Shown here: positions 1 through 42,672 of the stretch, one piece after another | Numbering within the stretch: position 1 is the stretch's first letter | Layout: every line of letters begins with the position of its first letter | Assembly: GCA_963664085.2 (NCBI GenBank) | Contig: CAXXLO010000002.1 | Span: 3,680,290 to 3,744,289, forward strand | Direction of reading: 5' to 3' | Source of the DNA: Caldilineaceae bacterium | GTDB lineage: Bacteria; Chloroflexota; Anaerolineae; Caldilineales; Caldilineaceae | Length of the DNA: 64,000 nt | Translations under genes and position numbers: made by a program | The notes under the pieces: generated by a model | Told to the model about the DNA's origin: nothing | Database searches by the model: none | Seen by the model: the letters and a program-made list of their open reading frames with translations, nothing else

Positions 1-313
1 GAAGATGTGCAAGGACAAGCGCAAATGCGGATTTTCCCGTACCATAGTCTCCGGTAATTCGCCACGCCCGGCGGCCGGAGCCAGGTCGGAGCCCTTCAAG
101 CAAGCGGCAAAACTGCGCCACCATTGTGGGCGTAGCAACATAATTACTTAAAGATGTTGGATCACTAAAATCTCGTTCAAGATGTACCGAGCGCAAGTAG
201 CGCTCCGGAAGACGGAAAAGACTATCTATCCTGAGGCGAATACTGCCAAAGTCGTCAGTTCCTATACCCTCACGCTTCCGAAGCGTGGCGTGGGGAGGCT
301 GTGACTCAAACAT
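1..313 (-). CDS. P-loop NTPase, N-terminal part only (gene runs off the left edge); SspC-like by its position after the DUF4007 gene
   Basis: Not in the ORF track because it is truncated. My minus-strand translation from ATG 313..311 reads MFESQPPHATLRKREGIGTDDFGSIRLRIDSLFRLPERYLRSVHLERDFSDPTSLSNYVATPTMVAQFCRLLEGLRPGSGRRAWRITGDYGTGKSAFALVLAHL and stays open to position 1. Walker A GDYGTGKS lies at 52..29. The ATG overlaps the upstream stop (308..306) by 8 nt. Confidence 0.6.
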   Translation of the reverse strand, partial: MFESQPPHATLRKREGIGTDDFGSIRLRIDSLFRLPERYLRSVHLERDFSDPTSLSNYVATPTMVAQFCRLLEGLRPGSGRRAWRITGDYGTGKSAFALVLAHL

Positions 314-1235
314 TACATTCGCCCTCCAAGTAGATAGCATCCAGAAAATCCAGATTCACATCATTGTTGCGAGAGACCAACCCCTGGACGGCTGACGGCT
401 GGTAGTTATAGGGGCGGGATACATCGGGCTTTGTGTAGACGTCTAGGCGCGCACGTATATCGTCTTCCGGGAGCTTAAATGTCTGACCGATACTTCCCGT
501 TGCGAAAGCAACGTCGCGGTATGTAAGGGTGGCTTCTCCAGCGTGGCGCTTCTCCCAAAAATCGTTCAAACAATACTCAAAGAGGGCCGTGGTGATGTCG
601 GGCTTGGTTTCGCGACGAAAGGCATAGACCGGTTCTCTTCGTCCGGAACCGTCGACACGACGCTCCCCTGATACTTGAAGAATCTCCAACTCGGCCAGAG
701 GACAGTCTAGAGCTTCCTCAGAAGGCCGTGCGTTCCCTCCTCTGGGAACATAGGTGTGAAGAAAGACATCTAAGTGTTCACCCAAAGTGACTTCTGAGCG
801 GGACTGGTTCAGACGTCGTGACTCTCGGTTGAATGCAGAAAGGGCTTCGCTGCGGGTCAACTCAGCATATGGCCACTTATGAAATAGATAATCCCATGCG
901 AAAAGCGCGCCATCCGGGCGTGACGTAACATTCCAATGTAGTAGCCAAAGCGTTCGGATATCTTCCAAAAAGGGATCATATCCTGAGTCGGAAAAAATTG
1001 CGTTTCCAAAGGGGGTCGGTTTAAGTGTCCTGTTACTGCCGGGCTCCGCTACTCCCATTGTCTCGACCCAGAAACGTATAGAGCGGACCATATTCTTGCC
1101 GACTCCCAGGCGTACCATCGCGCGTTCTTGATCCGAAAAGATGCTCGGGTCTTCGACAATTGCATTGTAGCCTTTCGGCAGCCATGCGTAGCGACAGGCA
1201 AAGCTTTCATGTCCCGAATACCTATAACTATCCAT
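306..1235 (-). CDS. DUF4007 family protein (SspB-like component of Ssp-type DNA phosphorothioation)
   Basis: 309-aa ORF. The N-terminus YSGHESFACRYAWLPKGY fits my recollection of the DUF4007 signature. It lies between a cysteine desulfurase and a P-loop ATPase on the same strand. Confidence 0.65.
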   Translation of the reverse strand: MDSYRYSGHESFACRYAWLPKGYNAIVEDPSIFSDQERAMVRLGVGKNMVRSIRFWVETMGVAEPGSNRTLKPTPFGNAIFSDSGYDPFLEDIRTLWLLHWNVTSRPDGALFAWDYLFHKWPYAELTRSEALSAFNRESRRLNQSRSEVTLGEHLDVFLHTYVPRGGNARPSEEALDCPLAELEILQVSGERRVDGSGRREPVYAFRRETKPDITTALFEYCLNDFWEKRHAGEATLTYRDVAFATGSIGQTFKLPEDDIRARLDVYTKPDVSRPYNYQPSAVQGLVSRNNDVNLDFLDAIYLEGECNV

Positions 1236-1315
1236 CTTTCAAGACGATTCGAGGACCGAGGGATGATTTCCTGGGCAAGCGCCGAATTCGCCGATATAAA
1301 CATTGTCATGCATGG

Positions 1316-2485
1316 CTATCTTCCTAACACACTTTGGATAGAAAGTATTGCCTCAGAGATATACATTGCCGCTCGGTTTATCTCATCGTCGGTGGTGAAC
1401 TTTCCTATCCCAATGCGAATGGCTCCATCTTGTAAGGATTCCGACAGTCCCATCGCTTGAAGCACATGCGAGGGAACTTGGGTCGCTGATGAACATGCTG
1501 AGCCTGTGGACAGAGCGACAAGGTGGCGCAATCTGGCGATAATGGCGTCGTTCGGGACGCCAGGAACTGAGACATGAAGGTTGTTGACCAGACGATGCTG
1601 AAGATCACCATTTACTACAAGCCCTTCTATGTCGGCAATCAGAAGCTCTTGCAGCCGATTGCGCTGTGCCGCCATACGTGGCTCATCATGCGACATTGCG
1701 CAGCGAAGCAACTGACAAGCCTTTCCAAGGCCAACGATTCCTGGAACGTTAGGTGTGCCTTCCTTCACCCCCGGAACAACCCACTCCCCAGACCCGAAAC
1801 GAAATTCTGCGGGCATAACTAATGCGCCTATTCCTTTCGGGCCGTAAATCTTGTGCGCGCTTAACGTGAGATAAGCTATTCCCCATTCATATGCCTTTAG
1901 GGGGATGTGCCCCACCGCTTGGGTCGCATCGACAAGGGTCTGAGCCCCAGCGGACTCCACAAATCTTACAACATCCGCGATGGGGTAGATTGTTCCCACC
2001 TCATTGTTTGCAGCCATCACACAGACAAGGTCGATGCCGCTTTGACAGATTTCTCTCAAAGCGCCCACATCCAGTCGAGCTTGTTTGTCGACTGGAATCA
2101 GCCGCACACTTACTTCGCCTCGCTGCTCGTAAAACGCGACAGCATCTTGGACTGCCCGGTGTTCAACAGTCGACAACGCCACTCGAAGCTGCTTACGTCG
2201 TCTTGAAGCAACCGCGTGCGATATAGCGAGCCAGATGCTTTCCGTTGAACCGCTAGTAAAGTGAACTCCTTCTGACTCAGCACCCACCAATTCCGCAACC
2301 TCACGTCTAGCATGGGAGACTTGATCAGCCGCCACTTCACCGTAGACGTGCTCAACGCTATTCGCGTTCCCAAATGTAGTCGTCATAACATCCGAAATGA
2401 CAGCGACCACGCGGGGGTCTACAGGTGTGGTGGCATGATGGTCCAGGTAAATTGGGGGAGGAGTGGGTAAACTCACGCTATGCAT
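1316..2485 (-). CDS. Cysteine desulfurase (class V aminotransferase; SspA/DndA/IscS-like)
   Basis: 389 aa. It has the N-terminal LDHHATTPVD motif, the PLP-lysine motif SAHKIYGPKGIGAL and the active-site Cys loop STGSACSS. Confidence 0.9.
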   Translation of the reverse strand: MHSVSLPTPPPIYLDHHATTPVDPRVVAVISDVMTTTFGNANSVEHVYGEVAADQVSHARREVAELVGAESEGVHFTSGSTESIWLAISHAVASRRRKQLRVALSTVEHRAVQDAVAFYEQRGEVSVRLIPVDKQARLDVGALREICQSGIDLVCVMAANNEVGTIYPIADVVRFVESAGAQTLVDATQAVGHIPLKAYEWGIAYLTLSAHKIYGPKGIGALVMPAEFRFGSGEWVVPGVKEGTPNVPGIVGLGKACQLLRCAMSHDEPRMAAQRNRLQELLIADIEGLVVNGDLQHRLVNNLHVSVPGVPNDAIIARLRHLVALSTGSACSSATQVPSHVLQAMGLSESLQDGAIRIGIGKFTTDDEINRAAMYISEAILSIQSVLGR

Positions 2486-2577
2486 TGTTCAGCTTTGATT
2501 GGCTTTGTCAGGACAGGCAGTTTGTAAATGGCCCAAACTGGTAGACGGATCGTGGGCCGTAATAACTGGCATTCTTA

Positions 2578-2718
2578 GAAGCTGTTTGAAAAGTCATCAG
2601 GGTCGGCCACAAGGCTCAAAAACGACTTCCGAGAGGTGGCGATATCCTCTATCTGCACGTCACAATTCGCACCTCTGGTGCCGTTCCAGCCCTGACCTGA
2701 CCCTTTTCAAACAGGCTC
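2578..2718 (+). mobile_element. 141-bp MITE, a non-autonomous derivative of the IS5-family element at 34660..35520
   Basis: The ends GAAGCTGTTTGAAAAG ... CTTTTCAAACAGGCTC are inverted repeats and match the IS termini. It is flanked by TTA/TTA (2575..2577 and 2719..2721). A second copy with about 3 mismatches lies inverted at 42678..42818. Confidence 0.8.
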
Positions 2719-3662
2719 TTACGCGCCCTGTGAGGAAGAGAAGTGTAACGCCATACCGGAGGATTTTGGCCCCCCAATGTTATTCACCAGTGGAGCATAT
2801 CTGAGGGTCTAGCCATTCGTCCATAGTAGCCCTCCCGAACATTCGGCTGGCTCTTGCCTTCAGGGAAGGGATTTCTTCCAGCTAGACCGACCGTTCAAAA
2901 CAGGTCAGCAATAGATGCGAGACTGTCTTCAGAGGGTCTGACAGTCATTTGCCAGCCTCTCGCAAGAGCAATTATTGCTGTAATGGACGGTACGCAGATA
3001 CAGTGCTTGCATCCTAATCGTTACCTTGATATTGGTCAAGATTGGTAAGCCGCCGCCTCACGGGAAACGCCTGCCATTTCCGGTGGACTCCAGAAGGATG
3101 TCCAGACTATGGGTAGGATCCTAACACTCGACGGATGTGCTGGATTTAGCGATTGTTTAGCGACCCAGGAGGTTGAGTGCCATACACAGAAAAGTGGCTT
3201 TGAAATTCTGGACATGACCTTGGCGAATGGGGCGTTCATCCTTACTATGAACGATTCTGTCAGAATGAGATATCCGGCCCTGATTTCATACGCTCTGTTC
3301 ATCTCATCTGCGATCTCTTCATATATCTCTGGGTCGCGTACCTTACTGCACTTCTGCCCTATCGCCTTTCTACCCTTCCAACCATTTTTTGTCCGTCTCT
3401 ACAGCAAGTTTTCTTTCCACTCACTCTGAAGTATATCCTGATTTTCCCATGTCGTAGGCATCAGAGCCAGATTGGAGTATACTTCTCCAAGTAAATTTCA
3501 CCGCAGACAAATCCTGATGCATTCAACTCGATCTGATGTCCCGACAGCTTGCGTTTTAGTGTTGGGTTCAGAAGTTATCGCCTCCCCCAACGGACAACGC
3601 TTCTCAAGTCTAAAGCAATCAAAGTACGGCAAAGTTGTGTCCTCTTGACCTTCCGGGGAACC

Positions 3663-4553
3663 ATGATGGACAGAGAATCAGTTCTTGAGAAATTCAAGAC
3701 GTTGAATCTCTTTAGAAATGACGGAGTAAGGGCACCGCACAAGCCCCTGCTGGTAATCCTCGCCATCGGTGAATTGCTGCGGGGCAAGGGACGCCTGCTG
3801 CCATATTCTGAGATCGACACCAAACTTGGAAAGCTACTGAGCGAGTACGGCCCCAGGCGGACGAGCCAAGGAACACAGTACCCGTTTTGGCGGCTTCAAA
3901 ATGACGGCATTTGGATCGTTTCCGATGCCAAGAGGGTTCGCCGAACAGGCAGTGGGGACGCATTCAAGAGGGATTTGATCGACTACAATGTTCATGGAGG
4001 ATTTACCAAGGAAATGGCCAGCCTACTTCAGGCAGACTCTGATCTCTCTATTGAAATTGTTCAGGGATTGTTGGACGGGCACTTTCCAGACACGTGGCAT
4101 GAAGACATTTTGCAGAGTGCCGGGATCGAGCTGACTGCTAAAGGCGTCATTCGCCAGAGACGCGACCCGAAGTTTCGGGAGAATATCTTGAAAGCCTATG
4201 AGTATCGCTGCGCCGTATGCGGCTTCGACGTGAGATTGGGGCTTCAGCCTGTCGCTTTGGAGGCCGCCCACATAAAATGGCATCAAGCCGGAGGCCCCGA
4301 TGTAGAAGTGAACGGACTGGCGCTATGTTCGCTTCACCACAAACTATTCGACCGCGGCGCTTTCACATTGTCCGACGAACTGGAGATTCTCGTTTCCGAA
4401 AACGCGCATGGTTCCGCAGGCTTTCAGGAGTGGCTAATGCGTTTCCATGGTGAGAAGCTCAACTTTCCACAGCGACAGACCTACTATCCCAACGCAGACT
4501 ACACCCACTGGCACCTAAACGAAGTGTTTCAGGGAGACTATCGCGAACGCTGA
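3663..4553 (+). CDS. HNH endonuclease with an N-terminal putative modified-DNA (phosphorothioate) binding domain
   Basis: The ORF track gives 3549..4553 from a TTG; I prefer ATG 3663 (MMDRESV..). The HNH core is YRCAVCGFD...EAAHIKWHQAGGPDVEVNGLALCSLHHKLFDRGAF. The N-domain APHKPLLVILAIGELL...QYPFWRLQNDGIWIV resembles, from memory, SBD-HNH type IV enzymes. Confidence 0.6.
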   Translation: MMDRESVLEKFKTLNLFRNDGVRAPHKPLLVILAIGELLRGKGRLLPYSEIDTKLGKLLSEYGPRRTSQGTQYPFWRLQNDGIWIVSDAKRVRRTGSGDAFKRDLIDYNVHGGFTKEMASLLQADSDLSIEIVQGLLDGHFPDTWHEDILQSAGIELTAKGVIRQRRDPKFRENILKAYEYRCAVCGFDVRLGLQPVALEAAHIKWHQAGGPDVEVNGLALCSLHHKLFDRGAFTLSDELEILVSENAHGSAGFQEWLMRFHGEKLNFPQRQTYYPNADYTHWHLNEVFQGDYRER

Positions 4554-4844: not shown

Positions 4845-6257
4845 ATGAGGAGAAAAATCGTGAGAAACTGGGGTCTTGGCCGCGGGAAATGGGTGTTTGT
4901 CGACTGGATTGGCGTGGAACCGGGCTACGGTACGGAGTGGGGCGGCGCAGTTAGCGAGGGCTGGAGCGTTCCACATGGGATAACGCTCAAAGTCCACGAG
5001 CCCACGGTAGATCCCTCGCCGGTGATCGTTGCCGACCGGCCCTGGGAGCAGGGCTATATATCTCCGTACTCGACGTTTCTTGAGGATGGAGGGACGCTCC
5101 GGTGCTGGTACGAAAACGGCGGCGGAATCGGCTATGCCGAGTCGCACGACGGCGTCGAATGGGAGAAACCGAACCTGGGCCTTCAGGCGTGGAACGGGTC
5201 GACCGACAACAACCTGATCGACATTAACCGTCACGGCCACGGCATCTTTATCGATCCCGCATCCGCCCCGTCCGAACGGTACAAAATGGTCAGCTGCCAC
5301 TGGACCGAGACCGAGCGTAAGGTCCTTGGCGCCATTTCCGCGGACGGCCTGCACTGGACGCCCATGGTCATGCCTATTATGGAGTATCAGCATGCCGACA
5401 CCCAGAACATTGGCCACTACGATGTGGAAAGGGCCGAATATATACTCTACACCCGCCAGATGGATGGGAAGTCGAACCGCCGCGGCGTCAACCCTGTGGC
5501 AACGGACAGCTTTCGGCGCTTTGAAAAGTCCGTACCGGTCTTGGAGAACAGTCCACTGGACGCGCCGGACGTGGATATCTACTGCAACGGCTACTCCCCC
5601 TGGCCCGGCGCAACGGACGCGCATCTGATGCGGCTCTCCATGTACGAGCGCACGCCCGACACGATGAACGTCCATCTGGCCACCAGCCGCGACGGCATCG
5701 CCTGGCACAGGCCCCAGGGCCGTAACGCCTGGATCGAAACGGTGCCATCCGCCCAGGGAGCATACAAGACGGTCTATGCCTGCGCCGGGGTTGTGCCGAC
5801 GGGCGCGGGGGAGTGGTCCACGTACGTTGGCGTGAACCGGATGTTGCACAACGAACCGGTGGAACGGAGGACGGGCGCGCCGGGCGAGTCGGGGCTGGTA
5901 CGCGCGGCGGTGCGCGAGGACGGGTTCGTCTCGGTTTCCAGCCGGGGGCGCGGCGGCTTCTGGACGGTTCCTTTCGAGCTGAACTCGGATTCGATCGGCA
6001 TCAATGCGGATACCCTTTATTCCGGCTTCCTGCGCTGCCAGATCCTGTCCTCCAGTCCCGGAGACGTCGGCAGCGACACTCGGTTCATCCACACCATCGA
6101 GGGCTACACGCTTGAAGAGTGCCAGCCGATAGTCGGGAATCAGATTGACGCTCCTCTAACGTGGAACGGAAGCGCCGACTTGAGCCAACTGCGGGGCCAG
6201 ACAGTCCGCCTCAGGTTTGACTTGTACAAGGCTGATCTGTACGCAATAAAGTTCTAA
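4845..6257 (+). CDS. Beta-propeller glycoside-hydrolase-like protein, paralogue 1 (function unknown)
   Basis: 470 aa. It has a blade motif GYAESHDGVEWEKPNLG and a C-terminal beta-sandwich-like tail (EDGFVSVSS...LRFDLYKADLYAIKF) shared with 7424, 12791 and 43206. Confidence 0.75.
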   Translation: MRRKIVRNWGLGRGKWVFVDWIGVEPGYGTEWGGAVSEGWSVPHGITLKVHEPTVDPSPVIVADRPWEQGYISPYSTFLEDGGTLRCWYENGGGIGYAESHDGVEWEKPNLGLQAWNGSTDNNLIDINRHGHGIFIDPASAPSERYKMVSCHWTETERKVLGAISADGLHWTPMVMPIMEYQHADTQNIGHYDVERAEYILYTRQMDGKSNRRGVNPVATDSFRRFEKSVPVLENSPLDAPDVDIYCNGYSPWPGATDAHLMRLSMYERTPDTMNVHLATSRDGIAWHRPQGRNAWIETVPSAQGAYKTVYACAGVVPTGAGEWSTYVGVNRMLHNEPVERRTGAPGESGLVRAAVREDGFVSVSSRGRGGFWTVPFELNSDSIGINADTLYSGFLRCQILSSSPGDVGSDTRFIHTIEGYTLEECQPIVGNQIDAPLTWNGSADLSQLRGQTVRLRFDLYKADLYAIKF

Positions 6258-31626: not shown

Positions 31627-32952
31627 GTGAATATCACCCAATTCACAATCGAGGAAGTCCGCTGTTTCGCCGAACGCCAGACCTTTGAAATTCGGCCTCT
31701 GACCTTCCTTGTCGGCGAAAACAGCACCGGCAAGACGACAGCGCTGGGCTGCTTCCAAGTATTGGCAAATTTCGTCGACAAGGGCGAAGTCGACTTTAAC
31801 GCTCACTCTTACTCTATGGGAACATTTAGGGACATTGTTAGGAGGAGCAGGAAGCCCGAAAAGAGATTCATCCTTGGCTTCTCGATTGAAGTTGACGGTG
31901 AGAACGTCGATCTCTCGGCCGAGTTCATCGAAAAGGCGAATGGAATCGAACCTACCGTAGGGGCAACTTCCATCAGTTTCGTCGACGGTGAGATCTTCTT
32001 TGAAATCAGACAGACTGCGCAAAGGGAAAGGGAATCGACTTTGAGAAAGGGAAAGGCCCGAAGCTATAGTGTCATTTATGGGTCGTTCCCTTCTACGGGG
32101 GTATTCCAACCTTTCTTCAATCTGAGTAGTCTGGCCAGAGTGGGCCAAGCTGAGGAATTTGACGACGAAATGCCGCTGGCGAAATTCTTAGGAGAGAAGT
32201 ATGACAACAACAAGAGTCTTTATCGGCTAGGAGTCAGCGGCAACTTGAACGCGCTGAGTACAGCTCCAATCCGATCCAGGCCAAGACGTACTTACGATCC
32301 CACCAGGGATGTCCTAGATCCAGAGGGTAGCAATATTCCAACTTTTCTTATGGGCTTAGTTGTCTCAAACACTAAGGAATGGGAGAAACTGAGTCAGCAA
32401 CTCTCTGCATTCGGCAAAAGTTCAGGACTTTTTAGCAGAATTAGTGTCAAGAACCTTGGAAGTTCCAAAATCGGACCTTTTCAATTGAGGGTCAAAGTGA
32501 GAGGCCCAACAGTAAGTTTTTCCGATGTTGGATACGGTGTAAGCCAAATTTTTCCCATTCTGGTCAACATTTTGGACGAGACCCTAATGCAAGGCCGTTC
32601 GGACGTTAATGCAATGCCAGTTTATCACCTGATGCAACAGCCTGAAGTCCACTTGCACCCAAGGGCGCAAGCGGAGTTTTCGTCTCTGCTGGTTCGGCTG
32701 GCAAACCTAGGAAGTCAAACGTTCCTAGTGGAGACGCACAGCGACTACATGGTAGACCGCGCACGCATCGAAATCATGAAGGGCAATATCAGCAAGGATG
32801 ATGTTTCACTGATTTACTTGGAGCCAAAGCGAAACACCGTCAAAGTACACAACATCTCTTTCGACGAAAAGGGGAACATGATCGGCGTGCCGCCCCATTT
32901 CAGAGAGTTCTTCCTGCTCGAATCAGATCGGCTGATGGGCTTTGCGGACTGA
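31627..32952 (+). CDS. ABC-type (AAA_15/AAA_21, DUF3696-like) ATPase, defence-associated
   Basis: 441 aa; the GTG start follows GGAGG. It has Walker A GENSTGKT, signature-like SDVGYGVSQIFPIL, Walker B/D-loop YHLMQQPEVHLHP and H-loop LVETHSDY. GC is low relative to flanks, by eye. Confidence 0.75.
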   Translation: MNITQFTIEEVRCFAERQTFEIRPLTFLVGENSTGKTTALGCFQVLANFVDKGEVDFNAHSYSMGTFRDIVRRSRKPEKRFILGFSIEVDGENVDLSAEFIEKANGIEPTVGATSISFVDGEIFFEIRQTAQRERESTLRKGKARSYSVIYGSFPSTGVFQPFFNLSSLARVGQAEEFDDEMPLAKFLGEKYDNNKSLYRLGVSGNLNALSTAPIRSRPRRTYDPTRDVLDPEGSNIPTFLMGLVVSNTKEWEKLSQQLSAFGKSSGLFSRISVKNLGSSKIGPFQLRVKVRGPTVSFSDVGYGVSQIFPILVNILDETLMQGRSDVNAMPVYHLMQQPEVHLHPRAQAEFSSLLVRLANLGSQTFLVETHSDYMVDRARIEIMKGNISKDDVSLIYLEPKRNTVKVHNISFDEKGNMIGVPPHFREFFLLESDRLMGFAD

Positions 32953-32955
32953 TAC

Positions 32956-33417
32956 ATGTGCATTATTCTGGACGCAAACTGTCTCGGCGATTTTCGAAAC
33001 AGATCCAATCAAGATATGCAGCCGGTTCGCACATGGTTGGACGAGAGAAACGGGAAAGTCGCATTCTCGGACACTGAAACGTTTCGAAGCGAGTGGAAGA
33101 GGGCCGGCCTGGACTACAGGGCGCTGAACCGCGCCGGTCAACTCAAGTTGATACCGGGAGAGGAAGTCCTGGCCCAACAAGAGAATCTGACTGGCGAACT
33201 TGAATCAGACGATCCCCATGTAATTGCGTTGGCCCTTGTCGCAGAGATTAAGGTTCTGGTCGTCCAACGTCAACCCGATGAACCGCTCACAGGAGGAAGA
33301 CGGAGGGCAAGGGGAGGGGACCCCGCATTGCAGAGGGATTTCAAGAGATTGGCTCGCGGCAAGGTCTATGTGACATCAGGCCATAAGCATCTTCTGACCA
33401 AAGATACCTGCCCCTGA
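32956..33417 (+). CDS. Small PIN-like domain protein (putative nuclease partner of the ATPase)
   Basis: 153 aa. It starts 3 nt after the ATPase stop. MCIILDANCL (first acidic residue) and ESDDPHVIALALVAEIKVLVV look like PIN strands; the assignment is tentative. Confidence 0.45.
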   Translation: MCIILDANCLGDFRNRSNQDMQPVRTWLDERNGKVAFSDTETFRSEWKRAGLDYRALNRAGQLKLIPGEEVLAQQENLTGELESDDPHVIALALVAEIKVLVVQRQPDEPLTGGRRRARGGDPALQRDFKRLARGKVYVTSGHKHLLTKDTCP

Positions 33418-34659
33418 TCTTTTCGCGCAGGGAACATGGCTACCGTCACACCCGCAACACAAGGATACAGCGCAACATGGCGCGCAGAAAGAGGAAGACC
33501 CGCAAGGAAATCACAAACTACGCTCACACCGATGAGCAGCGCGTCAACAACCCGCCCGTCGGCCTAGTTACGCCGGACACCGACAAGGACGCGGGCAAAA
33601 AGAGCTACGCCTACGATCCCCATCTCGACCCGCAACTCGTATGGGCCGGGAAGGCCGAGCGCACATCCTTTGAACTGCCGACCGTATCACTGCACGTCCA
33701 CGAACGCATTGACCCGCGTACGATCGTCGAGGTCGTCCGCAGGCAAAATGGTGGCGCCGACGACCCGCAACTCTCGCTCTTCTCGCTGCCCGAGGAGAAC
33801 CCGCCCCTGCGCCAGGCCATCGAGTTCTACCAGCACAGCCACAACTGGACCAACCGCCTGCTCGCTGGCGACAGCCTGCTGGTGATGAACAGCCTGATCG
33901 AAAAGGAGGGCATGGCCGGCAAGGTGCAGATGGTCTATATCGACCCGCCCTACGGCATCAAGTACGGCTCCAACTTCCAGCCCTTCATCAATATGCGCGA
34001 AGTAACCGACGGCAAGGACGCTGACCTGACCGCCGAGCCGGAGCAGATCCGCGCCTTCCGCGATACCTGGGAACTGGGCATCCATTCATATCTGCGTTAC
34101 TTGCGAGATCGCCTCCTGTTGGCGCGCGAACTGTTGACCGAGTCCGGCAGCGTGTTCGTGCAGATTGGGGATGAGAACGTGCATCTGGTGTCGTTGTTGC
34201 TGGATGAAATTTATGGTCGCGAAAATCGCATCGCAACGATTTCGTTTGCTACAACCAGCGGCAGTTCAGCCAAGCTTCTTCCCGAAGTGTCAGATTATCT
34301 CCTGTGGTATGCCAAGGATGCGAAAGGAGCAAAGTATCGCCAGCTTTTTGAGACGTTGAGCCGCAGGGAACTGATTGAATATATGTCTTCTTACGCGAAA
34401 GTTGAACTACCAGACGGTTCAACGCGTAAGCTCACCACAGAAGAGCGATTCGGCCCCGACAGGCATCTACCGCAAGGTGCCAGGTTGTACATGAGTATCG
34501 GACTTAATTCCCAAGGCGCATCGACCACCGGCCGATCTGAACCTTACATCTATCAGGGCACGGTATGGGAATGTGGGCATCGAAGGCAGTGGTCGATATC
34601 AAAGGAGGGTCTGGACCGGCTCGCAGAACTTGGGCGTCTTGACGCTGCCGACAGCCTTA

Positions 34660-35520
34660 GAAGCTGTTTGAAAAGGGTCAATTGGGAGCCAGCCGGCGTA
34701 CCATGAGACGAATCATAGCGATATGGATAAAGGCGACACTGCTTTCGGGCAGTCGTTCATAGTCTTTGCCAAGGCGACGATTGAGGCCGAGCCAAGCGAA
34801 GGTGCGTTCCACAACCCAACGACGGGGCAATACGGAGAATCCTTTTTGCTCTTGCGGGCGGAGGACAGGTTGAAGGCGGAAGCGAAAGCGCTGCGCAACC
34901 CATCTCTGCAACGAGCCGCGATAGGCGCCGTCAACCCAGATGAGACGCAGTTTCTGGCCGAAACCGCAGCCTCGTCTGAGCAGTTGCCGTGCCCCATCGC
35001 GGTCAGGCAGGTCAGCAGCGCTGACCAGGACGGCCAATACGAGTCCCATCGTATCGACGAGAAGATGCCGTTTTCGTCCTGTGATGCGTTTGCCCCCATC
35101 GTAGCCTCGCACACCTGTCGGTGTATGGCCGGTCTTGACTGTCTGACTATCGATACTGCCAGCCGTTGGATGCTTGTGTCGCCCGACTCGTTGACGGACC
35201 CGCACTCTGAGCATGTCGTGCAACCGTCGCCACGTGCCATCGTCTCGCCATTTCCTGAAGTAGGTGTAGACGCTCTGCCACGGCGGAAAGTCGCTCGGCA
35301 GCATCCGCCACTGAATGCCACCCACAGTCAGGTAGAGAATGGCATCAACGACCAGACGCATATCCAGGCTGCGGGGGCGTCCGCCCGGTTTGGCTGCAGG
35401 AATCAGATGCTGGATAATAAACCACTGGCTGTCAGTCAAATCTGTTGGGTATCGTTTTGTTTTCACAAAAACTACGTATACCACAATTTGGCCGACAGCC
35501 TTTACTTTTCAAACAACCTC
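34660..35520 (-). mobile_element. IS5-family insertion sequence (IS427/IS1031-like), 861 bp, apparently intact
   Basis: The terminal IRs are GAAGCTGTTTGAAAAG and (reverse complement) GAGGTTGTTTGAAAAG. A 3-bp TTA duplication lies at 34657..34659 and 35521..35523. It holds a single transposase ORF. Confidence 0.9.
34678..35484 (-). CDS. IS5 family DDE transposase
   Basis: 268 aa with KRYPTDLTDSQW, SIDSQTVKT, HLLVDTMGL, WVDGAYRG and VVERTFAWLGLNRRLGKDYE. The true start may be the GTG at 35466. Confidence 0.9.
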   Translation of the reverse strand: MVYVVFVKTKRYPTDLTDSQWFIIQHLIPAAKPGGRPRSLDMRLVVDAILYLTVGGIQWRMLPSDFPPWQSVYTYFRKWRDDGTWRRLHDMLRVRVRQRVGRHKHPTAGSIDSQTVKTGHTPTGVRGYDGGKRITGRKRHLLVDTMGLVLAVLVSAADLPDRDGARQLLRRGCGFGQKLRLIWVDGAYRGSLQRWVAQRFRFRLQPVLRPQEQKGFSVLPRRWVVERTFAWLGLNRRLGKDYERLPESSVAFIHIAMIRLMVRRLAPN

Positions 35521-37030
35521 TTAGAATGAAACGCTACGAAGAAGAAATACCAGGACGGAGAATCAACAATATCTGGCATCGCCAGATGTATCCCAGCGAT
35601 AAGACTTACGTTGTGCAAACCGCCAAGAGCGTCATTTCTCGCTGCCTTCTTATGAGCACCGACCCAGGCGACTTGGTATTCGACCCGACCTGCGGCAGCG
35701 GCACGACCGCATACGTCGCCGAGCAGTGGGGCCGCCGCTGGATCACCTGCGATACCTCCCGCGTCGCGCTCACGCTTGCCAAGCAGCGCCTCATGACGGC
35801 GACCTTTGACTACTACGAACTCGCCCATTCCGATGAAGGCGTGGGCAGCGGATTTCGATATAAGACGATTCCCGTCGTATCCGCACGCGTATTGGCATAC
35901 GATGAACCGCAAGCGCAAGAGACTCTTTACGACCAACCGCTGGTTGACCGGTCCAAGACCCGCGTCACCGGTCCATTCACCGTAGAGGCCGTGCCCGCGC
36001 CATCGGTTCGCTCGGTCGATGAGATATTGGAGGACAGGCCGCAACCGGCCGACGCCTCCATTGCCCGAGCCGGAGAGACGCGGCGGCAGGGTGACTGGCG
36101 CGACGAACTGCTGAAAACCGGCATTCGCGCCAAGGCCGGTCAGCGCATCCGCTTTGCCCGCCTGGAACCGCTCCCCGGTGCCCGCTATCTCCACGCCGAA
36201 GGCGAAACCCTGCCCAACGCCGACGGTGCGGACGGATTCCGCGACAATGGCGCGGCCGCGGATGCCCAGCGCATCGTCGTCTCCTTTGGCCCGGAGCACG
36301 CGCCGCTCGAACAGCGCCAGGTTGAGCAGGCGATCGCGGAGTCCCAGACACTGGTTCCCAGGCCTAAAGTCGTCGTTTTCGCCGCCTTTCAGTTCGACCC
36401 CGAGGCGGCCAAGGATATCGACGAAACCAGGTGGCCCGGCGTCGCGCTGCTGAAAGCACAGATGAACGCCGACCTGCTGACCGACGACCTGAAAAAGAAA
36501 CGCGCCAGCAACGAGAGCTTCTGGCTGATCGGCCAGCCCGATGTAATCCTGGAGAAGATCGCAAAGGGCAAGGACAAGGGCAACTATCGCGTCTCCGTCC
36601 ACGGCTTCGACTACTACAACACCAAGACCGGCAACGTCGAATCCGGCGGCCAGGACAAGATCGCCGTCTGGATGCTGGACCCCGACTACGACGGCCGCAG
36701 CCTCTTTCCCTGCCAAGTCTTCTTTCCCATGGCCGGCGCCAAGGATGGCTGGGCGCGCCTCGCCAAAAACCTGAAAGCGGAGATAGATGAAGATCGGATC
36801 GAAGCCTACCGCGGCACCGTCTCGCTGCCCTTCGCGCCGGGCGAACACCGCCGCATCGCCGTCAAGATCGTGGACGACCGCGGCATCGAAAGCCTGAAGG
36901 TGGTGGAGGTGGAGTGAAGGATGCAGTGGCGCGAATCCACACAAAGAACACATCTGCGCTCGCGACTTGTGCAGAGTAGTGGCAGATTGACCGCTGTTCT
37001 TTGAACAATAAGTTGTAGAGGCACATCACA

Positions 37031-37876
37031 GTGACCAGACCACTGAAGTCTAAAGCCATAGAGCGCCTTCGGAAAGCACTGAATGAAATCCCTGAGTTGG
37101 GAAAACTTTCGACCGACTCGCCGGAATTCAAGAAGTGGCAAAGAAACACCGCAGTCGCCATTGGAAGAACGTTTGGGACAGAAGGAACCCAAGTTAGCGA
37201 GTTCGATAATATCTCCTTCTTCGCAAGAAGTGTCCCCCCTCCAATTTTGAAGTCTGAGCTTACAGGTTGGCGCGTTAAACGAGAAAACGAACGCCAGCAG
37301 AGTTATGTGAAGGGCTTGGATTCATCTGCCTCGTTACTTGAGTCTATGATCGAGGAGATCGAGGAGTACTGGGAAGATGATAACAAGGAGCAAGGCTCAT
37401 TCAGCCTTCCAAAAGACGAACGGATTGACGCAACGAAAGTTTTCGTTGTTCATGGAAGGGATGATAGTACCAGACAGGCAGTGGCGAGATTTATCGAAAA
37501 GTTGGATCTCGAACCAGTGATACTGGATGAGCAGGCGGATAAAGGCCGCACGATCATCGAGAAGTTCGAGCAAGAGGCGGACGAAGTCAGGTTCGCTGTG
37601 ATCCTGTTGACACCGGATGATGAGGGTAGGCTTCGATCCGAAGAAGCCGAGCTCAAACCGCGCGCAAGACAGAACGTGATCTTCGAACTCGGGTACTTCC
37701 GGAGAGCCCTAGGCCCAAATCGAGTCTGCGCCTTGAAAAAAGGAGAAGTAGAAACGCCATCCGACTATGATGGAGTCATTTACATTCCACTCGACGATGC
37801 CGGGGGATGGAAGATGGGACTCATCAGAGAGCTAAAGGCAGCCGGGTTCGATGTAGATGCGAATCGTGTCTTGTAA
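37031..37876 (+). CDS. TIR-like (PF10137 / Cap12-PycTIR type) domain protein with a ~135-aa N-terminal helical domain
   Basis: 281 aa. The C-domain KVFVVHGRDD...GRTIIEKFEQEADEVRFAVILLTPDD...PRARQNVIFELGYF...ETPSDYDGVIYIPLDDAGGWK tracks the family consensus as I remember it almost residue for residue. Confidence 0.8.
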   Translation: MTRPLKSKAIERLRKALNEIPELGKLSTDSPEFKKWQRNTAVAIGRTFGTEGTQVSEFDNISFFARSVPPPILKSELTGWRVKRENERQQSYVKGLDSSASLLESMIEEIEEYWEDDNKEQGSFSLPKDERIDATKVFVVHGRDDSTRQAVARFIEKLDLEPVILDEQADKGRTIIEKFEQEADEVRFAVILLTPDDEGRLRSEEAELKPRARQNVIFELGYFRRALGPNRVCALKKGEVETPSDYDGVIYIPLDDAGGWKMGLIRELKAAGFDVDANRVL

Positions 37877-37897
37877 TCGTGTTTGAGGAAAAGCGCC

Positions 37898-39301
37898 ATG
37901 CAATCAGCCAACGAGCCTGAGGCGGCAACCGTGAAATTCCGGTTCAAGAATCTCGGCCCCGTAAAGGAGGCCGAGTTGGAACTGGGCGATCTCACCATCA
38001 TCGCCGGTCGCAACAACACGGGCAAGACATACCTGGCGTATACGCTCTACGGGTTCTTGAAAATGTGGGCGAGAATCCGACTTGAGAAAGTTAAAGTCCC
38101 GCGAACACAGCTAGAAGATTTCATTGGCAAGGTCTTGGAGAACAGGCGAGGTGAAAAGTGCGAAATCGATCGGGATTCTCTTATCCAGGAGCGCAAGTCA
38201 GTGATTCGAGAGGTGTCATCAAGTTATTCGAAGGATGCTCTGTCCGGAGTATTCAATTCGCCAGACAGTGCATTTGAAGGGGCCTCGTTCGAAGTCGAGC
38301 TTAGTAATGAACTTCCCGAAGGGTTGGTCTTCCAAGAAGAAGGACCGGTCTATTCGATATACTATGACGGGACTGAAGTTCAAATGACCTATGATAGGGC
38401 AGAAGAGTACCGCCTTTCGGAACTATGGGTTTCGGATGTCTATCTTCAGTTTTTGTTTCCGGAACTCTCCTTTGACCCTTTCGTGCTATCTGCGGAGCGA
38501 TTTGGCATTTCACTCTTCTACAAAGAGCTTGATCTAAACAAGAACCGTATGGTTGAGTTGCTATGGCAGAAGGCAGATGCCACAAACAAAGAGTATTGGG
38601 AGTCCGTTTCTCCATACTTGATGTTAGATATATTTGCCGGACGCTACGCACTTCCCATAAAGGACAACATAAACTATACGAGAAGTATCTCCTATCTCGA
38701 AAAGGAAAAAAGCGAGATATTGGAAGACAAGATTTTCGACGGTATAAAGGACATGATGGAGGGTTACTACCGTAGCGCCGGCGACGACATTCGGTTTAGA
38801 TCGAAAGCGCGCAAAGAAGGCACATTCAACATTCCTCTGCATCGTGCATCCTCGTCCGCACGCGGACTCTCTGATCTCTACTTCTTCCTGCGCCATGTAG
38901 TCAAGAAGAATCATCTTCTCATCATTGACGAGCCGGAAAGCCATCTCGACACCGCCAACCAGATTGAGTTTGCCCGCCTGCTGGCGCGTCTGGTGCGGGC
39001 TGGCGTCAAGGTGCTGATCACCACGCACAGTGACTACATTATCAAGGAGATCAACAACCTCATCATGTTGAGCCAGTCCTTTGAAGACAAGAACAAGATC
39101 GTCAAAAAGCTGAAGTACAAAAAGAATGATTTCTTGCCGGCGGAATCCGTCCGGGCGTATGTAGCGGAAGACAGTTCCCTGACCCCCTGTAAAATCGACG
39201 AGTTTGGCATTGACATGCCGTTTTTCGACAAGACGATCAACGATATCAATCGGGCATCGAACGAACTGGCAACTCGAGTGGCGCGCGAGGGAGTAGAGTG
39301 A
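37898..39301 (+). CDS. ABC-type (AAA_15/AAA_21-like) ATPase
   Basis: The ORF track starts at TTG 37883; ATG 37898 follows GAGGA. It has Walker A GRNNTGKT, Walker B LLIIDEPESHLD, H-loop LITTHSDY and a ~280-aa insert between Walker A and the signature region. Confidence 0.75.
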   Translation: MQSANEPEAATVKFRFKNLGPVKEAELELGDLTIIAGRNNTGKTYLAYTLYGFLKMWARIRLEKVKVPRTQLEDFIGKVLENRRGEKCEIDRDSLIQERKSVIREVSSSYSKDALSGVFNSPDSAFEGASFEVELSNELPEGLVFQEEGPVYSIYYDGTEVQMTYDRAEEYRLSELWVSDVYLQFLFPELSFDPFVLSAERFGISLFYKELDLNKNRMVELLWQKADATNKEYWESVSPYLMLDIFAGRYALPIKDNINYTRSISYLEKEKSEILEDKIFDGIKDMMEGYYRSAGDDIRFRSKARKEGTFNIPLHRASSSARGLSDLYFFLRHVVKKNHLLIIDEPESHLDTANQIEFARLLARLVRAGVKVLITTHSDYIIKEINNLIMLSQSFEDKNKIVKKLKYKKNDFLPAESVRAYVAEDSSLTPCKIDEFGIDMPFFDKTINDINRASNELATRVAREGVE

Positions 39302-39302
39302 A

Positions 39303-39848
39303 GTGACGCTGAACTCCCAAATGGAAGGCGCTTTGGATAAAAGGGTTATCCGGGCATCAGCGGACAGTGGCAGTAGCGTCACCCTGCGCGAAAAGTCTGC
39401 CAATATGCGGGTTAAGGTAGCAGGGCTTTCCGATCCTTTCACAGCGATACGCATGGGGAGTGGCAAGGGAAAGCTGAGTCACGCACCAAGTCTGAAAGAT
39501 GGCCCCAGGAAAAAGATCTGCGACTACCTGCTGATCGCGCAAATTGACGGCGCAGATCATGCAGTTTTCGTTGAATTGAAGAAGTCTCTGGGATCAAGAG
39601 GAGATCCTGAAGAACAGTTGCTGCGCTCCCGCCCGCTTCTCGAATACCTCCTTGCCGTCTGCGACATTGAACAGGGCGGCAAAAACGCAAGGCCAAGGAT
39701 AAGCTATGTCCTTGTCTATGAGAAGATCAATCTGAATAAATCAGGGTTGAGACCCGACCTGTCGGGAAAGATCGACGAGATTCCGTACAAATCGATCAAC
39801 ATCAAGAGGTTTCAAGGGACTGAATTGGAACTGGCTGACCTGGTATGA
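39303..39848 (+). CDS. Small PD-(D/E)xK-like (restriction-endonuclease fold) protein
   Basis: 181 aa. GTG lies 1 nt after the ATPase stop. It has a D-x17-E-x-K arrangement: ICDYLLIAQIDGADHAVFVELKKS. The fold call is motif-based only. Confidence 0.45.
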   Translation: MTLNSQMEGALDKRVIRASADSGSSVTLREKSANMRVKVAGLSDPFTAIRMGSGKGKLSHAPSLKDGPRKKICDYLLIAQIDGADHAVFVELKKSLGSRGDPEEQLLRSRPLLEYLLAVCDIEQGGKNARPRISYVLVYEKINLNKSGLRPDLSGKIDEIPYKSINIKRFQGTELELADLV

Positions 39849-39873: not shown

Positions 39874-42672
39874 ATGTCTCAAGCAACCATAGACCGCCTC
39901 ATCATCAACTCGCCCTACGACGAACCGACGCAGCATTGGCGCTACACCCGTGAGAGCAGATCCTTCTCGCTGGCGGAAGGCCGGCGGTCCGCCGGCTACG
40001 TGATGGCCTCCGGCGATTCCCAGGCGTTCGATGATCCAGGTGAGTTCGTAGAGATTCCTCTGGTCAACCAGATTAGGCCGCGCGTCAAAGCCTGGCGCGA
40101 GGCCGGCTATCCGGGCGTGACCGGCATCACGCGGCGCCTGCTGGAGCATTGGACAGATGAGGAGGAGTTTGAATCGCGTCGTTTCTTCTTTTGCCAGTTG
40201 GAAGCCGCAGAGACGCTCATCTGGCTTCGCGAAGCGCCGGACGCTGACAAAGTAGGGATCATTGTACCTGATGATGGCGGGTCGTTCGAACGGCTCTGCG
40301 CCAAGATGGCGACCGGTTCCGGCAAGACCGTTGTCATGGCCATGCTCATCGCTTGGCACATCCTTAACAAGACTACCTATCCCCAGGACACCCGGTTCTC
40401 CAAAAACGTACTTGTCATCGCCCCCGGCCTTACGGTCAGGAACCGCCTGGCCGTCCTTGAGCCGTCCCATGCAGAAAACTACTACGAGGCATTTCGCATT
40501 GTTCCCTCGCACATGCTTGACAAGCTCCGCCAGGGTCGCGTTATTGTCCGCAACTGGCATGCGCTCAACTGGGAGACGGAAGAGAAGATCGCGTCCAAGC
40601 GCAGCGTAGACAAGCGCGGCGCCAAGAGCGACGAGGCCTATGTCCGTGAAGTCCTGGGCGAAATGGCGAATGCCCGCAGCGTCCTGGTCATCAACGACGA
40701 GGCCCACCACGCGTGGCGCGTGCCCCCTGATTCCAAAGTCAGAGGTGTCGCCAAGTCGGAACGGGAGCAGGCCACCAAGTGGATAGGCGGCCTGGACCGG
40801 ATAAACAGGGCGCGCGGCCTGTTGACCTGCTACGACTTCTCCGCAACCCCCTTTGCGCCGACCGGCAGGAGAAGCACCGAGGATACGCTGTACGAATGGA
40901 TCGTGAGCGATTTCGGACTGAACGATGCAATCGAGGCCGGCCTGGTCAAGACCCCCCGCGTAGTCGTGCGCGATGACGCTGTGCCCGAAGCCAGGGAATA
41001 CAAGTCCCGTCTCTACCACATCTACAACGATCCCGAAGTCAAGGACGATCTGAATCGGAAAGCATAGCCCCACGAGCCGCTGCCCGATCTCGTCCTCAAT
41101 GGCTACTACCTCCTCGGTTACGATTGGCGGGAGGCCGCGAAAGACTGGAAGGAGGCCGGTTTCAGCACGCCTCCCGTGATGATCACCGTCGCCAACCGCA
41201 CCGAGACCGCGGCCCGGGTCAAGAACGCATTTGACCGCGGGCGGGTACTCATCGAGCAACTCTGCGACCCGGCGCGAACGTTGCACATTGATTCAAAGGT
41301 GTTGGACAAGGCGGAGACAACAGAGGAGCCGATTGCCGCAATCGAACCGACCGGCCAGCCTGATGGCAGAGAACGCAGGCTTACAAAGGATCAGCAAGCC
41401 GAATGGCTGCGCTTGCAGGTAGATACCGTAGGCCAAACGGGCAAACCCGGCGAGCAGATCCAGAACGTGATCTCGGTCGGCATGCTTTCCGAAGGCTGGG
41501 ACGCCAAGACCGTAACGCACATCATGGGGCTGCGCGCCTTCAGCAGCCAGCTTCTCTGCGAGCAGGTGGTCGGGCGCGGTCTCCGCCGCACCTCCTACGA
41601 CATAAACCCGGCAACCGGCATGTTCGAGCCGGAATACGTCAACATTTTCGGTGTGCCCTTTACCTTCCTGCCGCATGAATCTCACGAAGACACGATTCCG
41701 AAGCCGCCCAAACCAAAGACTGAAATCGAGCCGGTTGCCGCAAAAGCAGAATACGAGATAAGCTGGCCCAATGTGATCCGCATCGAACATCTTTACAGCC
41801 CGCGTCTGTCTCTGGACTGGGACAGTGTACAGCTCTTGGAACTGAACGCCAGCGAGACAGCGCAAGTAGCCCAACTTGCCCCGATCGTCGAGGGCAAACC
41901 GGACCTGTCCAGCGTCACCGCAATTGACTTGGAAAGGCTGGCGCGTGAATACCGGACGCAGCGGATAATCTTCGAGACGGCGCGTGATGTTTACGATCAG
42001 ATGCAGAGCGATTGGCGCGGCAGCAGGGAGGTTCTGCTGGTCCAAGTCGTGCGCCTGGTCGAGCGTTTCATCCGCTCCGACAAGGTCTACGTCTCCCCCG
42101 CCCTGTACCACCATGACAACTTGAGGCGGAATCTCATAATCACTCTGAACATGACGAAGGTAGTCCAGCACATTTGGGAGGCAATTCGTTTCGAGAACAC
42201 AAGGAAGTCGGAACCGGTTTTTGACCAAGATCGCCCCCTGCGATCGACTGGCGACATGGTGAAATGGTTTACGGGCAAGCCCTGTGAATTCACGGTCCGC
42301 AGCCACATAAACTATTGCGTGTACGACAGCGCCTGGGAGGCGTCCGATGCCTTTCACCTGGACCACAGCTCCGCAGTGGCGGCCTGGGTGAAGAACGATC
42401 ATCTTGGCTTTGAGATTCTCTATATCTATCGGGGCGTCGTGCGCAAATACCGGCCCGATTTCATAATCCGTCTCAAATCGGGCGAAGCGCTCGTATTGGA
42501 AACCAAGGGTCAGGAAACTGAACAAGACCGTACCAAACGCCGCTTTCTTGGGGAGTGGGTGAAAGCCGTAAACGATCATGGCGGATTTGGTCGCTGGCAT
42601 GCTGCCGTGTCAAAAACACCGGACGACATCCAAGACATTCTTGAGAAGTGCTCTGCCAAAGTCAAGATCTAG
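39874..42672 (+). pseudogene. Type III restriction enzyme Res subunit (helicase + PD-(D/E)xK nuclease) with one in-frame TAG
   Basis: ORFs 39874..41067 and 41176..42672 share one frame, and TAG 41065..41067 is the only stop. It has Walker A MATGSGKT, DEAH box VINDEAHHAW, motif VI EQVVGRGLRR and the nuclease motif RPDFIIRL...LVLETKG. Confidence 0.8.

Follow-up and report, generated by a model that had tools for sequence, protein, structure and literature searches.

The gene cassette analyzed here lies in a 64,000-nt stretch of the genome of a Caldilineaceae bacterium (contig CAXXLO010000002.1 of assembly GCA_963664085.2, positions 3,680,290 to 3,744,289; we call the whole stretch the window, and all position numbers refer to it). 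According to the list of open reading frames (ORFs), three intact and co-directional genes, denoted g1, g2 and g3, lie downstream of mod and ahead of res in a type III restriction-modification (R-M) operon. Based on model matches and family evidence, g1 (a TIR protein) is assigned to the single-gene candidate PDC-S35 of PADLOC, and g2-g3 (an ATPase and a putative small nuclease) to PD-T4-4/PDC-M47, i.e., the cassette is predicted to hold two already catalogued modules and not one new three-gene system. Our preferred reading, to which we give a probability of about 75%, is that these are two separate defense modules housed in a type III R-M operon that serves as their scaffold (mod-TIR-[cargo slot]-res) and that is dead in the window. 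The three genes are real and probably anti-phage; a defense role had been proposed for them in a preliminary description of this DNA and is supported by our results. The same description had taken the trio for one uncharacterized system and had found no named system to fit it. Neither proposal was upheld: g2-g3 are found without g1 in 13 out of 17 loci that have the pair and g1 is found alone at two loci, and PADLOC has models for g2 (PD-T4-4_A/PDC-M47A), for the g3 family (PDC-M47B/PD-T4-4_B) and for g1 (PDC-S35).

The product of g1 combines a helical N-domain with a PF10137-type TIR C-domain, as was expected from its letters: aa 136-255 match PF10137 (Cap12/PycTIR-type TIR) with an E-value of 2e-40, and the AlphaFold2 (AF2) model (predicted local distance difference test score, pLDDT, of 78) agrees, with helices to aa 113, a disordered linker at aa 118-132, and then the TIR domain. 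We use N-domain for aa 1-113, of which aa 60-100 is the most variable stretch, and TIR domain for aa 136-281. The protein matches the PADLOC model PDC-S35 (PDLC05005) at 2.2e-82 over the full length (aa 7-280 against 4-262 of 264), so that the match covers both domains. Foldseek search of the g1 model gave TIR matches only and none for the N-domain, the top matches being Cap12/TIR-STING (9lmq and 7un8; E 1e-5), SARM1 and the SPARTA TIR. By sequence profile g1 matches Cap12 at 7.6e-8 with conservation of the RxNVxFExG motif. Glu219 (in RQNVIFELG; codon 37685-37687) does not vary among 31 sequences and corresponds in the alignment to the Glu of NVVFEFG in Cap12. This Glu is catalytic in TIR-STING, and Glu219 is the putative catalytic residue of g1.

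The g1 family is very large (at least 7739 full-length matches), and the N-domain is present in 436 representative clusters. In ten longer proteins that we inspected, the N-domain almost always comes with a TIR domain: six have PF10137, three TIR_2 (PF13676) and one no Pfam match. Some carriers have two N-domains in tandem before the TIR domain (N-N-TIR, about 415 aa); proteins with the N-domain fused to TIR_2 or doubled are among P0319, P0340, P0345, P0298, P0335 and P0342 (P-numbers denote proteins and L-numbers loci that we compared). Two PF10137 TIR paralogues in tandem were seen on one metagenome contig (L073:3605-5463).

The protein encoded by g2 matches PD-T4-4_A (PDLC04033) at 1.8e-109 (aa 18-463 against 2-455 of 460) and PDC-M47A (PDLC04664) at 1.7e-90, and it also matches AAA_15 (2.4e-22) and AAA_21 of Pfam. 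Its ABC motifs (Walker A, Walker B/D-loop and H-loop; Table 1) are intact, and these motifs together with the two Pfam matches confirm the ABC-fold ATPase that the preliminary description had recognized from GRNNTGKT, LLIIDEPESHLD and ITTHSDY. With regard to Lamassu, the comparison yielded a match to SMC_N that is sub-threshold (22 bits vs. a cutoff of 40) and confined to the Walker B region.

The product of g3 has no Pfam or NCBIfam match. Residues D74, E91, K93, E104 and Q105 are invariant among 28 aligned homologues, which bears out the PD-(D/E)xK motif proposed for this protein, with the correction that the spacing is D-x16-ELK and not D-x17-ELK. Twenty-six of the 28 homologues match PDC-M47B (best 5.8e-10), 16 match PD-T4-4_B (best model 4.7e-5) and three match HSDR_N. 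Aligned by hhalign with the PD-T4-4_B protein of an E. coli plasmid, the g3 family profile gave a probability of 86% and an E-value of 5e-6, with the catalytic D/ExK/Q in register; the E. coli Col-plasmid pair was used as a proxy for the PD-T4-4 of ECOR58, and scores 3e-123 (A) and 1.1e-43 (B) on the PD-T4-4 models. In the AF2 model of g3 (pLDDT 84), two strands carry the motif and a long helix comes next. By motif, profile and family evidence, g3 is predicted to be a divergent PD-(D/E)xK nuclease of the PD-T4-4_B/PDC-M47B type. For g2-g3 we thus found a full-length match for A with its ABC motifs, homology and a predicted catalytic core for B, and adjacent, co-directional and linked A and B genes.

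PD-T4-4 (E. coli ECOR58, Vassallo et al. 2022) was found by functional anti-phage selection (PMC9519451) and consists of an NTPase and a PD-(D/E)xK nuclease that form higher-order complexes (bioRxiv 10.1101/2025.07.10.664194). PDC-M47 is the sister candidate of PD-T4-4 in PADLOC. PD-T4-4/PDC-M47 and g2-g3 have in common the order of the genes (A then B), the protein lengths (about 460-470 aa for A and 180-210 aa for B), the D...ExK...Q signature of B, and their occurrence on mobile elements and in defense loci. In contrast to the known pairs, g2-g3 are embedded in a type III R-M operon of a member of Chloroflexota, and g2 is only 28-33% identical to the ATPases of the enterobacterial plasmids, the Vibrio phage and the Bernardetia plasmid. 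A second system of similar description is WonAB of the Vibrio cholerae WASA-1 prophage, with an OLD-type ABC ATPase and a variant PD-(D/E)xK nuclease; its authors grouped it with PD-T4-4-like operons and reported an abortive defense that depends on both genes as well as on the ATPase motifs and the nuclease Lys (PMC12137116).

PDC-S35 (Payne et al. 2024 preprint) and PDC-M47 belong to a set of candidate systems from a large-scale screen for embedded genes, in which the hosts were BREX, DISARM, type I R-M and Hma and not type III R-M (bioRxiv 10.1101/2024.01.29.577857). Unlike in these source systems, the host of g1 is a type III R-M operon, in which g1 has a fixed position right after mod. As in the systems found through guilt by embedding, and as with PrrC in type I R-M, the cassette is defense cargo nested in an immune operon, with varying cargo and a conserved scaffold; it differs from them in its type III R-M host and in having one near-constant gene (the TIR gene) plus a second, variable slot.

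Cap12/TIR-STING of CBASS and PycTIR of Pycsar share with g1 the TIR subfamily PF10137 and the expected hydrolysis of NAD+ upon oligomerization. Unlike them, g1 has no STING or cyclic-nucleotide-binding domain; its putative sensor is an unrelated helical N-domain, and for this reason its trigger is predicted not to be a CBASS or Pycsar signal. The stretch that begins with mod and ends with res encodes a methylase, TIR, ABC ATPase, nuclease and ResIII and no cyclase, the NCBIfam Cap12 models give 30 bits (cutoff: 450), and the N-domain has no STING match. Neither does any neighboring gene encode a ThsA (SIR2/Macro/SLOG) domain as in Thoeris. GajA, PtuA, AriA and Old (of Gabija, Septu, PARIS and OLD) match the shared ATPase core only (1e-9 to 2e-24), far below PD-T4-4_A, and the partner here is a PD-(D/E)xK protein, not one of the Toprim, HNH or DUF4435 type. 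The earlier rejection of Thoeris, CBASS, Pycsar, Septu, PARIS and Gabija therefore stands.

The domains of a type III R-M system are present on both sides of the cassette, in a mod gene split by an insertion sequence (IS) and a res gene with a premature stop. The 5' part of mod is collinear with the intact mod of L005 and L003 as far as 34660, and the 3' part shares 94% DNA identity with L005. The IS, whose transposase matches DUF4096 (2e-28) and DDE_Tnp_1 (1.6e-24), is flanked by a 5-bp duplication and is not found in L005, where positions 5708 and 5704 join at 34660 / 35520 of the window (an overlap of 5 bp). In res, the window reads DDLNRKA-stop-PHEPL where L003 reads DDLNRKARPHEPL, the TAG standing in place of an Arg codon. 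Elsewhere mod is a single ORF of 858-976 aa (L001, L003 and L005) and res a single ORF of 928-950 aa (L003, L018 and L019). With mod interrupted by an IS5-family element and res by a TAG stop, the R-M system of the window is dead, in agreement with the inactivated R-M reported in the preliminary description. All three cassette ORFs are full length relative to their homologues, with the catalytic residues intact.

A scan of a genome collection with g2 gave 19 loci from about eight phyla (the phyla and classes are Chloroflexota, Latescibacterota, Poribacteria, Spirochaetia, Alpha- and Gammaproteobacteria, Gemmatimonadota and Binatia). In 17 out of the 19 loci, g2 is immediately followed by a g3 homologue, with the gene order unchanged. 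In contrast, g1 is present in four loci only (L001, L002, L003 and L005), all from Caldilineaceae and all having the same mod and res. The pair is without g1 in 13 of its 17 loci, and the upstream neighbors of g2 in loci without g1 are unrelated housekeeping genes. L019 (Binatia) has mod, a fragmented g2, g3 and res in the absence of g1, and L018 has only an 86-aa remnant of g2 between mod and res. Full-length relatives of g2 with a partner of about 200 aa are also found on plasmids, namely one of Bernardetia and Col plasmids of 4-5 kb from E. coli and Klebsiella, as well as in the P2-like Vibrio phage 1.202.O (L113), where the pair is flanked by the repressor and integrase genes. On the very small Col-type plasmids of E. 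coli and Klebsiella, e.g., E. coli pSCU-105-5 (L111, 4.8 kb), a PD-T4-4-type pair makes up the main cargo.

For g1, the genomic context of close homologues (55-60% identity) was obtained by 12 exact-protein look-ups, one of which (P0112) had no record, and a metagenome scan with the g1 alignment gave 80 loci with distant relatives only (at most 50% identity over the full length). None of the 80 metagenome loci has g2 or g3, and one has mod and res; the neighbors are varied. The linkage proposed for checking in the preliminary description thus holds for g2 with g3 (17/19 loci) and fails for g1 with the pair (0/80 distant relatives). As expected for PDC-S35, g1 can stand alone and has no fixed partner (L114, L116 and the 80 metagenome loci), with close relatives mostly adjoining a type III mod. 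These close homologues show the recurring order mod, TIR, variable genes, res, and in most of them the TIR start overlaps the mod stop. Counting the window, at least 12 loci have g1 directly after mod, and they represent at least two phyla (the records are Nitrospira-named and Caldilineaceae, and several metagenome contigs are unassigned). Judging from this gene order, g1 is a habitual companion of mod in this R-M lineage.

The slot between TIR and res is filled differently from locus to locus. It holds an M78 peptidase and DUF4411/PIN in L020, MNT/HepT in L024, L029 and L118, MNT with M78 and PIN in L030, and MNT with a g2-g3 pair in L119, where MNT separates g1 from g2; in L117 it holds nothing (a minimal mod-TIR-res). 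The mod and res of these seven loci are 65-81% identical to those of the window, and the operons are therefore orthologous.

Relatives with the same chromosomal site, recognized by its flanks (one sugar ABC permease gene with 88-95% identity, and common downstream genes with 78-95%), differ in what the site contains. L004 has g2-g3 only and L114 and L116 have g1 only, L115 has g1, g2 and g3 without mod/res, L120 has g1, an MNT remnant, g2 and g3, and the window, L003 and L005 have the full island (L003 and L005 were placed by the common upstream ATPase pair plus mod/res). Among the relatives, L018 has only the g2 remnant, enclosed by mod and res. Because the site holds g1 alone or g2-g3 alone in relatives, each module persists alone.

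Comparison within the Caldilineaceae R-M loci revealed that variation is concentrated in parts of the cassette. Identity is 91% for res and 89% for mod and 62% for g1 (51% for the N-domain and 72% for the TIR domain). The g1 of the window is a mosaic relative to that of L003, with a TIR domain 96% identical and an N-domain 49% identical (37031-37420 vs. L003:7152-7540), and blastn of the window against L003 gave no match across about 37138-37313, in the N-domain. In g2, an insert at about aa 60-180 (38075-38437), between Walker A and the Q-loop equivalent, has block identities of 0.23-0.55 vs. about 0.9 for the C-terminal half; blastn of 38068-38642 against L005 or L003 gave no match. The hypervariable N-domain of g1 and the insert of g2 are probably sensing surfaces, and the confinement of the diversification to these putative sensor segments suggests arms-race selection. 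Such localized hypervariability marks likely sensing surfaces and could steer mutagenesis. For g3 there are at least two deeply divergent alleles, 72-93% vs. 28-34% identical to the g3 of the window. The divergent allele (28-34%; L003:9430-10011 and L115:8354-8917) goes together with a g2 of 63-64% identity, from which the nuclease partner appears exchangeable. L003 has the closest g1 (74%) and yet the most distant g3 (28%); judged by these identities, g1 and g3 alleles assort independently.

Several observations weigh against reading the cassette as two separate, already catalogued modules. On the side of g3, the window protein alone scores weakly on the PDC-M47B/PD-T4-4_B models (E 0.0026-0.0076), and because it reaches only E 0.003-0.008, automated tools would probably miss it. 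Foldseek search of the g3 model against PDB gave no significant match (best E 0.024), the weak matches being mostly enzymes with the restriction endonuclease (REase) fold, and a search of PDB sequences with the g3 profile gave nothing up to E 1. Of the structural check that had been suggested for g3, the strand-strand-helix arrangement of the motif was thus obtained in the AF2 model and a significant fold match was not, which is why the nuclease call rests on motif, profile and family evidence. In addition, PDC-S35 and PDC-M47 are themselves candidate systems (bioRxiv 10.1101/2024.01.29.577857), and mod is split by the IS while the promoter scan found no convincing internal promoter in the cassette. 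Finally, at least five Caldilineaceae R-M loci (the window, L001, L002, L003 and L005) retain the trio as a block, which is also seen at the hotspot, in L115 without mod/res and in L120 with an MNT remnant separating g1 from g2. Among the close g1 homologues listed, about 15 may share a contig with a g2 or g3 match. Because the trio recurs as a block, also at the hotspot without mod/res, there may be functional cross-talk of g1 with g2-g3 in the Caldilineaceae lineage.

The habitual position of g1 can also be explained by g1 acting as a third subunit or guard of the type III R-M, kept inactive by Mod/Res in the manner of PrrC-EcoprrI, with g2-g3 as unrelated cargo; a phage block of restriction would then release g1 as an NAD+-depleting backup. 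The position directly after mod in at least two phyla, the overlap of the g1 start with the mod stop in most loci outside Caldilineaceae, the minimal mod-TIR-res of L117 and the orthologous mod/res across loci all fit this explanation. We nevertheless consider it unlikely: intact g1 is found without mod/res at the same site in L114 and L116, 79 of the 80 distant relatives have no R-M link and are surrounded by unrelated genes, g1 of the window is intact though mod and res are broken, and the correlation of g1 identity with res identity is only moderate when the full protein is taken (Spearman 0.42) and weak when the TIR domain is taken alone (0.25). A related proposal is that mod-TIR-res is a fixed cross-phylum core in which the TIR protein is a dedicated guard or backup effector wired to the R-M, as PrrC is to EcoprrI, and that the gap between TIR and res is a recombination slot for interchangeable defense cargo (PD-T4-4-like pairs, MNT/HepT, or M78 peptidase with PIN). 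If true, the window would be a layered immune operon and not a chance neighborhood, and phage anti-restriction factors would be what the TIR protein reads with its hypervariable N-domain. This proposal we regard as doubtful, the guard role being weakened by the existence of solo TIR genes and by a broader family outside R-M.

That g1, g2 and g3 form one obligate three-component system, new and unnamed, in which the ATPase senses and the TIR protein and the nuclease are both effectors, is very improbable in our judgment. The genes are indeed tightly spaced and co-directional, and their conservation as a trio in the five R-M loci named above, at the hotspot without R-M in L115 and around the MNT remnant in L120 is what such a system would show. 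Against it stand the 13 pair loci without g1, the absence of g2 and g3 from all 80 metagenome loci and from L020, L024, L029, L030, L117, L118, L114 and L116, the MNT gene between g1 and g2 in L119, the independent assortment of g1 and g3 alleles, and the listing of g1 and of g2-g3 as separate systems in PADLOC. We find it barely credible that the genes are selfish addiction or toxin-antitoxin (TA)-like cargo, or decaying remnants without current defense function, in a dead R-M: other slot occupants are TA-like (MNT/HepT, M78 with PIN), the R-M is inactivated and remnants exist elsewhere (L018 and the fragmented g2 of L019), but the three ORFs here are full length with intact catalytic residues, anti-phage activity has been demonstrated for the PD-T4-4 and WonAB relatives (PMC9519451, PMC12137116), and the strong allele diversification is confined to the putative sensor segments.

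With g1 and g2-g3 read as two separate modules, a working model can be proposed for each. In g1, the helical, fast-evolving N-domain would recognize a phage cue, upon which the Cap12/PycTIR-type TIR domain would assemble, hydrolyze NAD+ and stop the growth of the infected cell (abortive infection). SpbK of Bacillus subtilis, described in PMC12847820 as a single polypeptide with a TIR NADase that interacts with phage YonE and aborts infection, is an analogy of mechanism for this proposal, with no homology claimed. In g2-g3, a dimeric OLD-like ABC ATPase would sense infection via its hypervariable insert, binding and hydrolysis of ATP would control the small PD-(D/E)xK nuclease bound to the C-terminal part of g2, and the nuclease would cut nucleic acid.

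The finding adds divergent and environmentally widespread members to two families, the PD-T4-4/PDC-M47 pair, with relatives in E. coli and Vibrio whose anti-phage activity has been tested, and the PDC-S35 TIR protein, a candidate. It also extends guilt by embedding to type III R-M operons, in which the TIR gene after mod hardly changes from phylum to phylum and the cargo at a second, variable slot does. In the literature we found nothing specific on PDC-S35 or PDC-M47 in main texts, nor on type III R-M with an embedded TIR gene. No description of the conserved mod-TIR-[slot]-res layout was found in the searchable literature; this layout is the part worth following, and would be more interesting if functional.

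The gaps between the cassette genes are 21 nt (g1-g2) and 1 nt (g2-g3), and the layout of three co-directional genes with this spacing between mod and res was re-derived as first reported. The cassette is also AT-richer than mod and res, as had been judged by eye: its GC content is 0.498, compared to 0.57-0.62 for mod, 0.585 for res and 0.606 for the whole window, which places it at the 0.2 percentile among 2818-bp windows (mean 0.607, sd 0.039). A scan for promoters and terminators within the cassette gave counts within about two standard deviations of shuffled controls. Table 1 lists the features.

Table 1. Coordinates of the cassette genes, their motifs, the R-M genes and other low-GC features in the window
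Feature	Coordinates	Strand	Remarks
g1	37031..37876	+	281 aa; GTG start, AGAGG upstream
g2	37898..39301	+	467 aa; ATG at 37898, GAGGA 8 nt upstream; alternative start at open TTG, 37883
g2 Walker A GRNNTGKT	38006-38029	+	aa 37-44; Lys is K43
g2 SAERFG	38489-38506	+	motif position
g2 Walker B/D-loop LLIIDEPESHLD	38915-38950	+	aa 340-351; Walker B Glu is E346
g2 H-loop ITTHSDY	39017-39037	+	aa 374-380
g3	39303..39848	+	181 aa; GTG start
g3 motif, D74	39522-39524	+	from alignment
g3 motif, E91-L-K93	39573-39581	+	from alignment; E104/Q105 on following helix
mod, 5' part	33477..34660	+	PF01555 N6_N4_Mtase 4.7e-12; truncated by IS
IS5-family insertion in mod	34661..35519	-	about 860 bp; transposase ORF 34678-35484, minus strand
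mod, 3' part	35520..36917	+	C-terminal half of N6_N4_Mtase, 1.2e-14
res	39874..42672	+	ResIII 7e-10; premature in-frame TAG 41065-41067
Candidate defense pair upstream of mod	31627-33417		GC 0.49-0.54
Low-GC stretch	306-4553		GC 0.47-0.54
DUF4007 gene	306-1235	-	in low-GC stretch
Class-V aminotransferase / cysteine desulfurase-like gene	1316-2485	-	in low-GC stretch
HNH_2 protein gene	3549-4553		in low-GC stretch

Two other low-GC regions of the window have candidate defense genes. Directly upstream of mod is a pair that is 98-99% identical in L003 and L005, consisting of a 441-aa ABC-type ATPase, which matches NsnB (1e-39), PDC-M55A (2e-37) and HEC-03B (3e-20) of PADLOC, and a 153-aa protein, which begins with MCIILDAN, matches no family and may be PIN-like. 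The low-GC stretch near the start of the window holds the DUF4007, aminotransferase/desulfurase-like and HNH_2 genes listed in Table 1, which presumably resemble part of an Ssp/Dnd-type phosphorothioate defense module.

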